From: Candidatus Poribacteria bacterium
GTDB lineage: Bacteria > Poribacteria > WGA-4E > PCPOR2b
DNA length: 64,000 nucleotides
Assembly (NCBI GenBank): GCA_965215015.1
Contig: OZ244042.1
Span: forward strand, 64,001-128,000
Direction: 5' to 3'
Below, in pieces: positions 10,611-62,346 of the stretch. The position numbers and the translations under genes were made by a program. Below the pieces are notes generated by a model. The model was not told the origin of the DNA, searched no databases, and saw only the letters and a program-made list of their open reading frames with translations. The stretch's first letter is position 1. Every line of letters begins with the position of its first letter.

Positions 10611-11005
10611 TAGATAGGGGCTTTTCTCTGAATTTAACGCAAAGACGCAGCGTCGCAAGTCCCGATTCCGTTGCCCTCCAATCGGAACGCCACCCCGTTT
10701 ACCCCCTAACCCCCTCCCAAGTGGGGAGAGGAAGGAAATGCTTACCGCATCATGGATTCACAGTTTCATCGGGAGAAGAACCAAGAAACGAACCCCCCTT
10801 CCCTGACGAAGAGGAAAACGGGAAGCCGCTTCCCTCGCTTTCTCATTTCCTTTTTTTCCGTTTCCCTTCCCCCTGCTAAATACCCGGTGGGTTGTCCGTC
10901 AGTTCCTGGCTCATTGAGCCTAGAACAGTCTGATACCGTGTGGGTATTCGGGACTGAGGGGGGGCGTCCAAGCGTTTTATTAAAAGCCAGTAACGACTTA
11001 TCCCC
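10611..11005 (+). repeat. Dispersed non-coding repeat family A, copy with internal REP and mini-element insertions
   Basis: Runs TAGATAGGGGCTTTTCTCTGAATTTAACGCAAAG ... AAAAGCCAGTAACGACTTATCCCC. Inverted homologues at 62061-62346 and 23595-23792. Confidence 0.8.
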
Positions 11006-18687: not shown

Positions 18688-18962
18688 TCGCGCGTTCATT
18701 GCGCCTCTTTAAGGGAGTCGGCATACGGCGTATGTCGACTCCCCCCTTCTCCCCGCTAAATACCCGGTGGGGTGTCCGTCAATTCCTGGCACAATGGGCC
18801 TGTCTCCCCTCGCTTGTGGGGGACTGAGGGGATTCTTAGGGGGCAGCTACTTACGACTATGGGATGATGTAGTTGTCCGATTCGTCGGGCACCGTGAACC
18901 GTATGGCCCGATGATGGGGACCCGACCTACGAGGGTTTGAACCTTCAACTGCGTAAGTCCTA
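18684..18962. repeat. REP/MITE mosaic
   Basis: GTAG hairpins, GGGAGTCGGCATACGGCGTATGTCGACTCCC palindrome (also at 9721), truncated AAATACCCGGTGGG element and TGCGTAAGTCCTA end. Confidence 0.7.
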
Positions 18963-22641: not shown

Positions 22642-23544
22642 TTATTGGGTTGTTAATCCATCGGCTTGTGCGCGGTTCAGCCAACCCGGCAGCTTAACTT
22701 TAGCCGACAACTCCCAAGCCGTCAGGTAGAGTGCAGCCGTAAAACGTGTCGCTTCACGAGCCCGCTCAGTCGCAAAATCAACGACTTCAGGAACGCGCTC
22801 CCAGTCTTTGTTTCCAAAAGAAGGCAGGTCAGCCCCCAGTTCATACACCCGGTTGAGCAGGGCAAAGCCCGCATGAAATTCCTCCACAATACCAGCCATC
22901 AGATCATCTAGAGGCTCGATCTCCTGATCCTTTGCCAGCATCGATGGATCGAGAGCCAAATATTCGATAAGCGCGTCCACTTTCTCATGAATCCCTTTAT
23001 GCAAGACAGAACCATCCGACTGTTTCCAACCGTCGAAATGAATTGTCAGATGCAAGGGTTGACACATATCCTGCGCGTAGTGAGCAACGAATCCGGCATA
23101 AACTAGGCATTTACTCTGAATATGGGGATTGTTGGGCCATTTTCGGTGCTCGGCAAATGCCACGGCAAGGCGCTCTGTCCATTCAGCAAGGGCATAAGGC
23201 ACGAACCCCACCTTGTCGGGTTTAATCCCCAACTCAGTGCACAACTGAGTAAACTCATACCGGGTTTTCGGGAGTGGCTTGCCCTGTAAAAGCTCCAAAT
23301 CGAGGTAGTGCTCTGGATGTTCCGCCGCGCTGACATGGGGCGTACCATGATTTTTTGATATATCCGGCTCGTACGCACAGTGGGCAATCATTCCTTCCCC
23401 TGCTTGGAAAAACGCAGGCACCTCATCGGGCAATGCTCGAACCGCTGCTCGCGTTAGGATGCCATGTCCGCCCGACCACCACCCCCACGCAGCACCTTCG
23501 GCGACAAATAAACTCACACATACAGTCAATAAGAAACGTCTCAT
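22642..23544 (-). CDS. Secreted S1/P1 nuclease or zinc-dependent phospholipase C fold protein
   Basis: Signal peptide followed by W..GGH, HYLD, HYAQDMCQPLH and GIHEKVD zinc-ligand pattern. Confidence 0.8.
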   Translation of the reverse strand: MRRFLLTVCVSLFVAEGAAWGWWSGGHGILTRAAVRALPDEVPAFFQAGEGMIAHCAYEPDISKNHGTPHVSAAEHPEHYLDLELLQGKPLPKTRYEFTQLCTELGIKPDKVGFVPYALAEWTERLAVAFAEHRKWPNNPHIQSKCLVYAGFVAHYAQDMCQPLHLTIHFDGWKQSDGSVLHKGIHEKVDALIEYLALDPSMLAKDQEIEPLDDLMAGIVEEFHAGFALLNRVYELGADLPSFGNKDWERVPEVVDFATERAREATRFTAALYLTAWELSAKVKLPGWLNRAQADGLTTQ

Positions 23545-23594
23545 TTTTGCACTTGACTCCTTATCAGAAATGGAATATGCTACATTTTAAAAAT

Positions 23595-23792
23595 AGGAAA
23601 TAAGTAGTTACTGGCTTTTAATAAAATGCAAGGGAACCAGGGGGCTAAGACGCAAAAAAAAGAAAGCGAGAGAACCGGCTTCCCATTTTCCGCTTCATCA
23701 GGGAAGGGGGTCTTTTCTTGGTTCTTCTCCCGATGAAACCGTGAATCCATGATACAGTAAGCATTCCCTTGGGAGGCAACCGAATCAGGACT
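23595..23792 (-). repeat. Dispersed repeat family A copy that runs into the tandem array
   Basis: AGGAAATAAGTAGTTACTGGCTTTTAATAAAA...TTCTCCCGATGAAACCGTGAATCCATGAT matches 62061-62270 and the reverse complement of 10650-11005. Confidence 0.8.
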
Positions 23793-25308
23793 GGTGCCTC
23801 CTCTCCCCGCTTGCGCCCTTCCCCCCGCTTGCGGGGGGACTGAGGGGGGTAAGTTAAATTTCGTAGTTCGGTGATTCATTGCCGAACAATATCACTGCTG
23901 GTGCCCGATGAATCGGGCGACTACAGTAAATCCATAGGTTTGTAGTTGGGCGATTTATCGCCCGTCCGAACGCAGGTTGAATTACGCTACTACAAGTTGG
24001 AGCAAGTTGGAGCGCGTAAGTCCGAAATATTTCAAAACGAGGTCGTTTCTTGGTTCTTCTCCCGATGAAACCGTGAATCCATGATACAGTAAGCATTCCC
24101 TTGGGAGGGCAGCCGAATCGGGACTAGTGCCTCCTCTCCCCGCTGGCGCCCTTCCCCCCGCTTGCGGGGGGACTGAGGGGGGTAAGTTAAATTTCGTAGT
24201 TGGGCGATTTATCGCCCGTCCGAACGCAGGTTGAATTACGCTACTACAAGTTGGAGCAAGTTGGAGCGCGTAAGTCCGAAATATTTCAAAACGAGGTCGT
24301 TTCTTGGTTCTTCTCCCGATGAAACCGTGAATCCATGATACAGTAAGCATTCCCTTGGGAGGGCAGCCGAATCGGGACTGGTGCCTCCTCTCCCCGCTGG
24401 CACCCTTCCCCCCGCTTGCGGGGGGACTGAGGGGGGTAAGTTAAATTTCGTAGTTGGGCGATTTATCGCCCGTCCGAACGCAGGTTGAATTACGCTACTA
24501 CAAGTTGGAGCAAGTTGGAGCGCGTAAGTCCGAAATATTTCAAAACGGGGTCGTTTCTTGGTTCTTCTCCCGATGAAACCGTGAATCCATGATACAGTAA
24601 GCATTCCCTTGGGAGGGCAACCGAATCAGGACTGGTGCCTCCTCTCCCCGCTGGCGCCCTTCCCCCCGCTTGCGGGGGGACTGAGGGGGGTAAGTTAAAT
24701 TTCGTAGTTGGGCGATTTATCGCCCGTCCGAACGCAGGTTGAATTACGCTACTACAAGTTGGAGCAAGTTGGAGCGCGTAAGTCCGAAATATTTCAAAAC
24801 GAGGTCGTTTCTTGGTTCTTCTCCCGATGAAACCGTGAATCCATGATACAGTAAGCATTCCCTTGGGAGGGCAGCCGAATCGGGACTGGTGCCTCCTCTC
24901 CCCGCTTGCGCCCTTCCCCCCGCTTGCGGGGGGACTGAGGGGGGTAAGTTAAATTTCGTAGTTGGGCGATTTATCGCCCGTCCGAACGCAGGTTGAATTA
25001 CGCTACTACAAGTTGGAGCAAGTTGGAGCGCGTAAGTCCGAAATATTTCAAAACGGGGTCGTTTCTTGGTTCTTCTCCCAATGAAACCGTGAATCCATGA
25101 TACAGTAAGCATTCCCTTGGGAGGGCAACGGCATCGGGACTGGTGCCTCCTCTCCCCGCTTGCGCCCTTCCCCCCGCTTGCGGGGGGACTGAGGGGGGTA
25201 AGTTAAATTTCGTAGTTGGGCGATTTATCGCCCGTCCGAACGCAGGTTGAATTACGCTACTACAAGTTGGAGCAAGTTGGAGCGCGTAAGTCCGAAATAT
25301 TTCAAAAC
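23714..25308. repeat. Tandem array of 254-bp near-identical units (5 full units plus partial units at both ends)
   Basis: GTAGTTGGGCGATTTATCGCCC recurs at 23942, 24196, 24450, 24704, 24958 and 25212 (period 254). Only a few substitutions between units. Confidence 0.97.
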
Positions 25309-25397
25309 TCTGCAAAGTTTAATCCGCATTATAGCACTGATCGAGGTTTTGGGCAACAACAATCCTACAGCTAAAGCAGAATGTAAGCGAGGACGTT

Positions 25398-26405
25398 ATG
25401 ACAGGCGAAGTAAAACAAAATATACGTTGGGGGATTCTGAGTACGGCAAGGATCGCAACAAAGGTAGCACGAGCCATCAACTTGGCAGACGGTGCCGAGT
25501 TGACGACAATCGCGAGTCGAAAGGAAGAGCGAGCCAAAATGTGGGCGTCTGAACACGACGTTGGAATAGCCTACGGAAACTATGAGGCACTCCTCGAAGA
25601 CCCGGAAATTGATGCCATTTACAACCCATTGCCACCCTCAATGCACGCCGAGTGGACTATCAAAGCGGCGCAACAGGGTAAACATGTGCTGTGCGAAAAA
25701 CCGTTGGAGGCAAACACAGAAAAAGCGATAGCGATGGCAGATGCCTGTCAGCAGCACAATGTGCAACTGATGGATGGCGTCATGTGGGTGCATCACGTGC
25801 GTACTCCTAGGATGAAACAGGTCATTGATGATGGGACTTTAGGACAATTGCGTCGGGTGACGGCGGCATTTACCACAGGTTGGGACAAAATTCCAGAAGA
25901 CAACATCCGGGTCAAAAAGGAACTTGCCGGCGGCTGCCTCGGAGATCTCGGTTACTATTGTGTTCGCTGCATTCTCTGGGCATTCGGCGATTTACCAACG
26001 CAGGTCTTTGCTACCGCACGCTATTATCGTGATGTAGAACTCAACCTGTCAGGCACCCTCTGGTTTGAAGACGAACGGATAGCCGCATTTGATTGTGGCT
26101 ATGATACCGCCAGCCGCAGGTGGTTTGAGGTTGCTGGCACCCAAGCTTCTATTGTATGCGATGATTTCGTAGTACCCCGGCAAGAAGACTCGACCCGTTT
26201 CTGGATACACGGTGCACAGGGACGGAACGAAGAACATAAAAGCGGAGGCTGTATCCAAGAGGTACGCATGATTGAACGGTTTTCAAACATTGTTCGGATC
26301 GGGCAGCTTGAGCCGCACTGGCAAACCGAAGCAATCAATACAATGCGTGTCTGCGACGCGTTGAGTGAATCTGCACGACTCGCACAGGTTATCCAAATCA
26401 GTTAG
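25398..26405 (+). CDS. Gfo/Idh/MocA family oxidoreductase (D-xylose dehydrogenase-like)
   Basis: RWGILSTARIA, HVLCEKP and GGCLGDLGYY motifs. Confidence 0.9.
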   Translation: MTGEVKQNIRWGILSTARIATKVARAINLADGAELTTIASRKEERAKMWASEHDVGIAYGNYEALLEDPEIDAIYNPLPPSMHAEWTIKAAQQGKHVLCEKPLEANTEKAIAMADACQQHNVQLMDGVMWVHHVRTPRMKQVIDDGTLGQLRRVTAAFTTGWDKIPEDNIRVKKELAGGCLGDLGYYCVRCILWAFGDLPTQVFATARYYRDVELNLSGTLWFEDERIAAFDCGYDTASRRWFEVAGTQASIVCDDFVVPRQEDSTRFWIHGAQGRNEEHKSGGCIQEVRMIERFSNIVRIGQLEPHWQTEAINTMRVCDALSESARLAQVIQIS

Positions 26406-53855: not shown

Positions 53856-54168
53856 TAGGACTTACGCAAAATCAATAGACATAATGGTTGAAAAAGAATA
53901 GAAGGGACAGCATAGAGGTGAATATGAGCTAACTGACTCGATTCCTGTCAGTATTTGCTCAGCAGCTCTACCAACTATACCTTAATTCATTGCCAAAGGG
54001 GGCATTAATTGTTCGGAATCATATCGATTGTGCAATGTTGGTTCGGGTGCGACTCAAGCAAGGGACGTATCAGACAGCATTTATCAAGTCAAACACAGTT
54101 TATCCTCTAAATACCTACGACACCAATTGGAATCGCCTGCTATTCAGATGCAACTTGCGTAAGTCCTA
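53856..54168 (+). mobile_element. Internally deleted IS701-like insertion sequence
   Basis: Perfect TIR TAGGACTTACGCAA / TTGCGTAAGTCCTA with flanking ATATTAT repeat. Transposase remnants CQYLLSSSTNYTL (N-term) and RNHIDCAMLVRVRLKQ...KYLRHQLESPAIQMQLA-stop (C-term). Confidence 0.75.
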
Positions 54169-62060: not shown

Positions 62061-62346
62061 AGGGAATAAGTCGTTACTGGTTTTTAATAAAACGTAGGGA
62101 CGTAAGGGGGCTAAGAGGTAAAAAAAAGAAAACAAGAAAGCGACAGAACCGGCTTCCCGTTTTCCCTTCGTAAAGGAAGGTTCCGGTTTTGTTTTTTCGT
62201 ATCTCTCCCGATGAAACCATGAATCCACGATGCGATAAGCATTCCCTTTGGAGGGCAACCGAATCGGGACTTGCGCCCCCCTGCTTGCGGGGGAGGGGGT
62301 AAGGAGGGGCGACTTTGCGTTAAATTCAGAGAAAAGCCCCTATCTA
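62061..62346 (-). repeat. Dispersed repeat family A copy
   Basis: Reverse complement of 10611-11005, with a differently placed REP insertion. Confidence 0.8.

Follow-up and report, generated by a model that had tools for sequence, protein, structure and literature searches.

The window studied here, a stretch of 64,000 nt covering bases 64001-128000 of the single 5.94-Mb chromosome contig (49% G+C) of a Candidatus Poribacteria bacterium (the studied genome, G000), contains a tandem array of 254-nt repeats in the spacer between two divergent genes. We hold it to be probable, at about three chances in four, that this array is a young and strain-specific tandem amplification, which took place in situ from mobile-element debris and adjoining local DNA, was not moved as one unit and displays no sign of a functional RNA or protein. 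It would represent a clean and dated case of the birth of an intergenic satellite, as an empty site of 157 bp, a single-copy intermediate and the amplified form all survive, and the limits of its repeat unit would stem from an arbitrary local duplication, independent of where the enclosed mobile elements begin and end. Coordinates are those of the window unless another locus is named.

Architecture of the array

Tandem Repeats Finder (TRF) reported positions 23942-25308 as a repeat of period 254 with 5.4 copies, 98% matches and 0% indels (score 2650). A repeat search identified five copies of 300 nt at a start-to-start spacing of exactly 254 nt and an extra leading copy at a spacing of 332/333 nt. 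By alignment of the units, the whole array spans 23706-25308 (1603 nt) and consists of six head-to-tail units that are 97-100% alike. The array is real, and the original prediction, made from the sequence alone, of about six units with an exact period of 254 was borne out by all three approaches. The leading unit had been taken to be a partial one; this was wrong, as it is a longer variant of 332 nt that holds an additional doublet of repetitive extragenic palindromic (REP) sequences. The parts of the array are as follows:

23706..24037, plus strand: leading unit u0, 332 nt, resembling the founder of the repeat (unit alignment)
23863..23941, plus strand: 79-nt segment of REP doublet 1 and spacer, in u0 only (79 alignment columns gapped in units 1-5)
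24038..25308, plus strand: five exact 254-nt units and one closing base (TRF, repeat search, unit alignment)

The length of u0 equals that of a normal 254-nt unit plus 79 nt minus one G, and the 79-nt segment is flanked on both sides by 6-nt direct repeats, GTAGTT. Twelve columns vary among the six units, all of them at unit positions 1-111 and none at 112-254, so that the right 143 nt of the unit are identical throughout; eleven of the twelve fall within the part derived from the dispersed element X described below (unit positions 1-98) and the last one at position 111. Variants had been predicted to be common to non-adjacent units, and both instances hold: full units 3 and 5 share a G at unit position 3, and CAACCGAATCAGG is common to the leading unit and unit 3. 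On the minus strand the array contains five overlapping open reading frames (ORFs), four of 122 amino acids (aa) and one of 105 aa. The single ORF tested had no Pfam family, and 254 is not divisible by three, in agreement with the earlier view that the array is non-coding; in annotation, these 105-122-aa frames should not be named genes.

Composition of the repeat unit

The unit is a mosaic in which several dispersed modules are followed by a short piece of local DNA. Its modules, given for unit 1 together with the half of element X that lies outside the array, are:

23593..23705, plus strand: left half of element X, outside the array (blast coverage, paralogue, 24-copy alignment)
24038..24135, plus strand: right half of element X, unit positions 1-98, recurring in every unit (genome blast, copy alignment)
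24154..24171, plus strand: GC hairpin CCCCCCGCTTGCGGGGGG, unit positions 117-134 (coordinates from the unit map)
24196..24246, plus strand: GTAG...CTAC REP doublet of 51 nt, similar to the hairpin-forming REP doublets known as REPINs, GTAG ends outward, unit positions 159-209
24247..24266, plus strand: 10-nt tandem duplication, CAAGTTGGAG twice, unit positions 210-229 (unit map)
24268..24277, plus strand: GCGTAAGTCC, right inverted-repeat end of a family of miniature inverted-repeat transposable elements with terminal inverted repeats (TIR-MITEs), unit positions 231-240
24278..24291, plus strand: GAAATATTTCAAAA (+C), local ancestral spacer DNA present in every unit, unit positions 241-254

Element X is about 220 nt long (23590-23812 in the window). 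Coverage by its dispersed copies begins sharply near 23585-23595, and 29-33 of these copies align unbroken across 23706, the left edge of the array (blast of the pre-array composite; 24 copies aligned). In G000 the element has 50 matches at 72-100% identity including the array copies, the dispersed copies being 72-93% identical, and the predicted repeat family was confirmed by paralogues in the window at 10732-10843 and 62061-62320. In the 19 other genomes of the same genus, a single marginal match of 38 nt was obtained. According to the 24-copy alignment, the left part of the element has two alternative forms and GC hairpins variably follow its right end.

Unit positions 99-158 form a GC-rich stretch that contains CCCCCCGCTTGCGGGGGG. 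The genome contains 24 exact copies of this 18-mer and, by blast, more than 100 related sequences, which substantiates the proposal that the hairpin is a dispersed module. The proposed GTAG REP is also present, in the form of the GTAG...CTAC doublet: at unit positions 159-180, GTAG stands beside a short imperfect palindrome (GTAGTT+GGGCGAT-TT-ATCGCCC), and the palindrome of its partner REP (GTAGTAGCGTAATTCAACCTGCG when read on the opposite strand) is degenerate, as judged by eye. The two REPs are in inverted arrangement, and the doublet aligns with doublets from three sister genomes (G001, G003 and G014). The unit has matches in all 19 other genomes of the genus; most of those listed involve the REP doublet (unit positions ~148-219) or the GC hairpin. 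The listed matches to the doublet are 82-93% identical, and the doublet thus occurs in many copies within the lineage. An exact 22-mer of the REP of the unit has six occurrences in the genome, all inside the array.

The last mobile module, GCGTAAGTCC, occurs 147 times on both strands of G000 compared to about 11 expected occurrences, and many REP-bearing modules of different kinds have it as their sharp outer border. Nine close inverted pairs of the motif, 95-299 bp apart, demonstrate that the TIR-MITE family itself is real. The unit does not carry both terminal inverted repeats (TAGGACTTACGCAGTTGAA); it has the right end only, and the six array copies are all in plus orientation. A complete TIR-MITE of about 190 nt was found at locus L168 (829-1016), in which inverted repeat, REP doublet, spacer, REP doublet and inverted repeat follow each other. 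As this is the layout of the right part of u0, the REP, the MITE end and the 79-nt segment are pieces of one TIR-MITE. The two-doublet stretch of u0 (23856-23995) also recurs as one piece of about 130-140 nt at six other places in the genome. Since this stretch is found elsewhere in the genome and in the complete MITE, u0 keeps the original form and the 254-nt unit a derivative with a deletion of 79 nt.

The ancestral spacer and a probable single-copy strain

The array occupies the spacer between the following genes and promoter-like sites:

22642..23544, minus strand: left gene, 300 aa, possible distant relative of S1/P1 nucleases (ORF; conserved neighbour in the genus)
25398..26405, plus strand: right gene, Gfo/Idh/MocA oxidoreductase (Pfam PF01408, 5.7e-22; PF22725, 2.3e-22)
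23553..23581, plus strand: promoter-like TTGACT-17-TATGCT, rightward to the Gfo gene (9/12 consensus matches)
25328..25356, minus strand: promoter-like TTGCCC-17-TATAAT with TG extension, leftward to the left gene (10/12 consensus matches)

In 12 of 16 relatives' loci the spacer between the two genes measures exactly 157 nt, and in a further one (L143) 157-160 nt, as compared to 1853 nt in G000. The spacers of L135, L144 and L145 are 491, 355 and 376 nt long owing to unrelated, independent repeat insertions, and the 157-bp spacer spot seems to tolerate or attract insertions; in L135 the point of one insertion, after ...GCTA(A/C)ATT, is the same as that in G000. Relatives without insert have AAAATGTTTCAAACC or AAAATATTTCAAACC directly before a conserved CTC(T/C)GCAAGG. 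All units of the array end in GAAATATTTCAAAAC, which the insert-free relatives carry at the same spot. The left edge at 23706 lies within element X and each unit ends in local spacer DNA; therefore, the modules were not moved as a single element.

Public sequencing runs were compared as short-read contigs, whose depth (Logan) cannot give copy number. Run X6 (study P3) contains a strain that differs at about 3% of the flank positions and is represented by a single contig of 4454 nt. This contig follows 23606-23992 and then continues with 25273-25700, with 133 letters on the shorter side of the joint; the skip of 1280 nt equals five times 254 plus 10 nt. The strain accordingly has one copy of CAAGTTGGAG compared to two in the units of G000, one 10-mer being included in the skip, and it lacks an 18-nt internal duplication at 23805. 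The depth of X6 is zero in three bins that span 24029-24109 and 24191-24352 and include the junctions from u0 to unit 1 and from unit 1 to unit 2. We read X6 as carrying the putative single-copy, pre-amplification allele of a strain of ~97% similarity.

Runs X1 and X2 (study P1) provided contigs that are identical to the two flanks of the array (0 differences) and stop within the repeat. X2 also yielded a contig of 67 nt at 24009-24075 with 0 differences, which includes a unit junction with 29 and 38 nt on either side, and X5 (study P2) a contig of 212 nt (24408-24619, 0 differences) that bridges the junction of units 2 and 3 at 24545/24546. These perfect unit junctions from two studies argue against an assembly artefact, i.e., a collapsed or over-expanded repeat or mixed strains that were stitched together, as do the single-contig chromosome and the structured mosaic of unit differences, which is not something an assembler would invent. 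Suspicion of an artefact could be raised by the metagenome-type assembly with its estimated contamination of 3.89% and by the related one-unit strain that co-exists in the public data. On balance, an artefact is very improbable. Other joints, leading from 23617-23851 to later units with skips of 440, 547, 549, 874, 916, 1128, 1135 and 1189, had unrelated letters or sides of 21-46 letters and were read as other dispersed copies and not as alleles. In the metagenome contigs of the Joint Genome Institute (JGI), neither a 30-mer across a unit junction nor one from the array into the flank had a match (0 each).

No similar array was found in the 40 relatives searched, and the complete 254-nt unit had no other match in the G000 genome by blast. 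Among the matches listed, the widest one in a relative covers unit positions 156-253 at 75% identity and none spans the whole unit. The original prediction had named the lack of such an array in any relative, together with a lack of transcription, as the mark of neutral repeat slippage, and the comparison, as far as the relatives searched are concerned, fits this neutral alternative.

Formation of the array

The array starts and stops at the same phase of the unit, as plain tandem duplication predicts, and neither end is at a GTAG. The founding junction, CAAAAC|G(A/G)GGTC, has no useful homology between the breakpoints; hence the first duplication was probably an illegitimate one. All four combinations of the alleles at unit positions 75 and 108 are seen among the six units. 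In unit 5, three clustered changes give CAACGGCATCGGG, which is the haplotype of 5 of the 24 aligned paralogues of element X. Both patterns fit unequal exchange between units together with short conversion tracts from X paralogues, although exchange and conversion are deduced here from the pattern of variants. Unequal crossover had been one of the processes put forward originally, and it agrees with the four-gamete mosaic and with the same-phase outer ends.

The proposed course of events is the following. The starting point, as comparison with the relatives shows, was the ancestral 157-bp spacer with its two conserved promoter-like sites face to face. Between these sites, the lineage-specific ~220-nt element X with a GC hairpin would then have been inserted, and also the right ~170 nt of a TIR-MITE with its two interior GTAG REP doublets, giving the single-copy state that appears to be retained in the ~97% similar strain. 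This would have been followed by the head-to-tail duplication, presumably through illegitimate recombination or template switching, of a segment that starts midway in X and takes in about 15 nt of the unique spacer. One copy would subsequently have lost the 79 nt between the two GTAGTT repeats, and homologous unequal crossover or slippage may have multiplied the resulting 254-nt form until five copies were present, as the geometry and the mosaic variants suggest. Finally, gene conversion, including conversion from dispersed X paralogues, may have patched the X-derived part of the unit.

REP sequences and the proposed role of a RAYT

An alternative origin, also proposed in the original prediction, is an array of the type of the bacterial interspersed mosaic elements (BIMEs), formed by a REP-associated tyrosine transposase (RAYT) through rolling-circle amplification of a REP-delimited module, according to the model of Nunvar et al. 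(2010; PMC2817692), as outlined in the sections of that paper available to us. The REP side of this proposal is well founded. GTAG, which occurs 478 times or at 4.3 times the uniform share, is the most enriched 4-mer beside hairpins with a 7-bp stem in G000, and this tag is borne by 559 of the 3578 hairpins; owing to this enrichment, G000 can be said to contain a true GTAG-REP population. The unit holds a genuine GTAG REP doublet, and the sister genome G001 encodes a RAYT of 90 bits which has doublets of this very class, by alignment, on its upstream side and is thus the cognate transposase. RAYTs above the cut-off (80 bits) occur in 15 of 20 genomes of the genus, with one to several in each. 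The RAYT genes of relatives (loci L171-L182) are each flanked by their own GTAG REP class, and in four of the eight loci fetched (L176, L177, L179 and L181) tandem REP arrays, with periods of 67, 106, 158 and 164 nt, adjoin the RAYT. Finally, the 79-nt difference between u0 and the other units runs exactly from GTAGTT to GTAGTT. Only this indel follows the GTAG-to-GTAG register; it could stem from slippage or from an old excision.

However, the geometry of the array does not correspond to such a module. Its ends at 23706, within X, and 25308, in the unique spacer, do not coincide with REPs; 157 nt separate the left end from the first GTAG and 46 nt the last doublet from the right end, and a REP-to-REP module would at this place give a period of 79 and not 254. 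In addition, the search of G000 with the RAYT model (NCBIfam NF047646, REP_Tyr_transpos) gave no protein above the 80-bit cut-off and only relics of 30.8 and 28.3 bits. A search with Pfam Y1_Tnp, which was positive in the E. coli control, found only two broken IS200-like pieces in G000. The RAYT relic at position 4711268 of the genome adjoins a different REP class and is thus not a cognate RAYT of the unit in G000. With ends that are not at GTAG and no RAYT above the cut-off, rolling-circle amplification is quite improbable as the origin of the array, and an in-situ tandem duplication is preferred. Judged from its sequence, the doublet of the unit is a REPIN-type element whose likely transposase exists in the genus, with no intact one in G000. 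Poribacteria therefore carry GTAG REPs with cognate RAYTs, and the studied strain, devoid of an intact RAYT, still gains copies by tandem duplication.

A further Y1 transposase, an IS200-type protein of 157 aa without flanking GTAG REPs, was present in all six relatives' loci fetched (L162-L167). It was rejected as a RAYT, as it scored 77 bits with transpos_IS200 and 29.8 bits with the RAYT model (cut-off 80), and it had no tblastn match in G000.

Flanking genes and possible function of the array

The genes on both sides had been named as an S1/P1 nuclease and a Gfo/Idh/MocA protein. The latter assignment is confirmed by Pfam, whereas for the left gene the match to S1-P1_nuclease falls short of the threshold (E 0.013, 15.8 bits, cut-off 29.5); this gene had no Pfam family at E<=0.001 and no sequence match in PDB at E<=1. 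Orthologues of the left gene, with 81-89% aa identity, lie beside the Gfo gene as a divergent neighbour in 16 relatives' loci, and orthologues of the Gfo gene (87-93% identity) occur in 17 of the 19 other genomes of the genus, G001 being rearranged at the locus.

A consensus scan of the region returned two promoter-like sites compared to 1.6 expected, which is not significant alone; both are, however, conserved in the relatives' spacers. The TTGACT and TATGCT hexamers of the rightward site are both present in 16 of 16 spacers, and ATTATAGCA of the leftward site is kept in 15 of 16 relatives, with ATTATAACA in the remaining one; their role as promoters is putative. In the spacer of the genus (loci L133-L149 of the relatives; window 23545-23592 and 25309-25397), the promoter-like sites stand face to face, each beside the start of the gene that is not its own. 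The predicted leaders in the 157-nt spacer have an antisense overlap of ~37 nt.

An array selected for function, either as a regulatory leader of variable copy number or as an array of small structured RNAs, would be in keeping with its position exactly between the conserved promoter-like sites, from which the predicted leaders cross it in opposite senses. The close similarity of the units (97-100%, with the identical right 143 nt) could be taken in the same way, yet it is also the expectation for a very young duplication. As a precedent, a MITE-borne minisatellite with bidirectional promoter activity is known from Porphyromonas gingivalis (PMC4596501, in the sections available). The array is absent from the 40 relatives and from the ~97% similar strain, which speaks against selection, and the repeated structured RNA that had been considered originally received no backing: no Rfam 15 family matched at E<=1 in window 23000-26000, the only matches at gathering score in the whole window were signal recognition particle (SRP) RNA and six tRNAs, and the whole unit folds no better than shuffled sequences (z-scores: plus strand -0.33, minus strand -0.57). 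A hammerhead ribozyme, suggested by CUGAUGA/CUGACGA-like boxes in X, was rejected, as there was no Rfam match and no helix II by eye. Within the array, the consensus scan found neither a promoter-like nor a terminator-like site. Variable promoter spacing, also suggested at the outset, applies only in a modified sense: the array is downstream of both promoter-like sites, and its copy number would change the length of the leaders, not the spacing of the hexamers.

Whole-genome TRF analysis of G000 gave 298 rows, which merged into 61 arrays with a period of at least 60, at least 2.5 copies and at least 85% match. Of these, 54 look non-coding and total 40.9 kb. Non-coding arrays favour divergent over convergent spacers (12 and 4, respectively, as compared to 432 spacers of either kind genome-wide), which could also be brought forward for a regulatory function. 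Examples of arrays outside the window lie at 5334832-5335526, 3780946-3781877, 1699739-1701443 and 3401892-3403009 of the genome. The non-coding arrays include a REP-doublet array of period 79 with 8.8 copies and one of period 127 with 7.3 copies, and many are built on a TCTGAATCAGGAT-type repeat.

Taken together, selection for function is unlikely, and the array most likely has no function. As a side effect, both genes, if they are still driven by the conserved promoters, would probably have to be transcribed through a mutually antisense leader of ~1.75 kb. A much bolder idea, which we consider a long shot, is that by turning the ~37-nt overlap into complementary leaders of ~1.73 kb, the recombinational gain and loss of 254-nt units adjusts, in a heritable way, transcriptional interference and the formation of double-stranded RNA for both genes at once. 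If this were true, and the other 11 arrays in divergent spacers behaved alike, expression variation by copy number would be general in this RAYT-less lineage of Poribacteria.

Some observations weigh against a neutral amplification in situ and have to be set beside the evidence for it. The copy number of six comes from the assembly alone. The single-unit contig of X6 could in principle be a collapse by the assembler; this is argued against because the junction words would remain in that case, and they are absent. The founding junction, where CAAAAC is joined to GGGGTC, has no microhomology that would account for the first duplication. The confinement of variation to unit positions 1-111, which we read as conversion from X paralogues, may instead reflect constraint on, or homogenisation of, the right 143 nt. 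The tandem REP arrays beside RAYTs suggest that these enzymes may have a role in array formation in the lineage in general, and an ancestor of the studied strain may have had a RAYT. Lastly, the excess of arrays in divergent spacers could hint at a regulatory use, or merely at longer and more tolerant spacers. Amplification of debris in situ remains the preferred reading.

The inverted-repeat family

The right end of the unit had been described as IS701-like. It is instead the inverted-repeat end of the TIR-MITE, and the genome has no IS701 transposase match: the model NF033540 (transpos_IS701) gave 0 matches at E<=0.001 among the 17 candidates scored in G000. At their outer ends, the TIR-MITEs have TA on both sides in 10 of 11 pairs and TA/TG in the eleventh, the TA being inseparable from the repeat itself. 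No transposase was found between longer pairs of the motif, as the seven pairs examined enclose ordinary genes. An IS630-type DDE_3 transposase was discarded as a candidate, since none of its three fragments is bounded by the repeat. The motif was likewise not accepted as the right end of a TnpB/IS605 element; there are 19 TnpB fragments, the best of which has a TIR-MITE of 107 nt inserted downstream. A promoter or leader motif was also considered for GCGTAAGTCCTA and rejected, as the gene-facing counts follow no orientation rule: with a crude gene map, 79 gene starts and 49 gene ends were counted opposite its downstream side, and 80 and 48, respectively, opposite its upstream side. In the literature searched with a 10-mer and two 15-mers, no related occurrence of the inverted-repeat string was found among the papers listed.

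The same inverted repeat (TAGGACTTACGC ... GCGTAAGTCCTA) bounds a stretch of ~310 nt at 53858-54168, which is located among six clustered tRNA genes and that for SRP RNA (52.1-54.4 kb). An exact 19-mer, TTCAACTGCGTAAGTCCTA, occurs at window 18943-18961 and 15289 and in many chromosomes of Poribacteria. It was also found in records of Methanosarcina and Methanotrichaceae archaea, Cyanobacteria, Chloroflexota, Pyrinomonadaceae, Desulfobacteraceae, Methylomirabilis and Electronema, with at least 117 stretches in all (loci L011-L090). Perfect inverted pairs of TTCAACTGCGTAAGTCCTA, ~100 nt apart and with unrelated interior, are present in one metagenome-assembled genome each of Methanobacteriota, Desulfobacteraceae and Oscillochloris. 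By these occurrences, the 19-mer looks like the mark of a putative MITE superfamily common to bacteria and archaea; its transposase was not found.

Comparison with known repeat systems

The description of the array as a BIME-like, non-coding satellite built of dispersed repeat modules was supported. As far as the accessible sections of Nunvar et al. (2010; PMC2817692) go, it shares with the BIME-2 and atypical BIMEs of E. coli and Stenotrophomonas that REP and inter-REP sequences form mosaic intergenic arrays which vary between strains and may be of hybrid REP content. BIMEs, according to the same sections, have regularly spaced alternating REPs and REP-delimited modules, whereas the array of Poribacteria has one doublet per 254 nt, and its ends, 23706 and 25308, are not at REPs as in BIMEs of the E. 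coli type.

The doublet itself resembles the HH dimer of the GTAG REP superfamily (Di Nocera et al., 2013; PMC3733652), in that the GTAG ends point outward. In the sections of that paper at our disposal, GTAG repeats are reported from the Planctomycetes-Verrucomicrobia-Chlamydiae (PVC) superphylum, Chloroflexi and Cyanobacteria, and tandem reiteration is mentioned as a feature of GTAG REP clusters at large. The same sections do not name Poribacteria, and the second REP of the present doublet differs in being a degenerate palindrome.

A likeness also exists to the BrickBuilt repeats of Porphyromonas gingivalis (Klein et al., 2015; PMC4596501), which, in the portion of the paper available, are intergenic tandem repeats associated with MITEs and with a possible effect on transcription of neighbouring genes. 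BrickBuilt has a repeat of 23 nt and is part of the element at 19 of 19 sites; here, the repeat of 254 nt occurs at one site and combines several elements with local DNA.

A close counterpart is found in Pseudomonas fluorescens SBW25, for which the sections available of Bertels and Rainey (2011; PMC3116915) report 16 tandem REPIN clusters, the largest of more than 700 bp, and conclude that a second cluster-forming mechanism exists besides transposition. As in these clusters, the repeat unit consists of a REP doublet and adjoining DNA, and by the definition given there the array belongs to this type, each unit holding the doublet flanked by 157 nt on its left and 46 nt on its right. It differs from the SBW25 clusters, as they are described in those sections, by the larger 254-nt unit with half an element X, a GC hairpin, a MITE end and unique spacer, by its length of 1.6 kb and by its host, a member of the Poribacteria without intact RAYT. 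No description of such repeats in Poribacteria was found in the literature searched. The kind of array, tandem REPINs with flanks, is already known; what appears to be new is its occurrence in the phylum Poribacteria.

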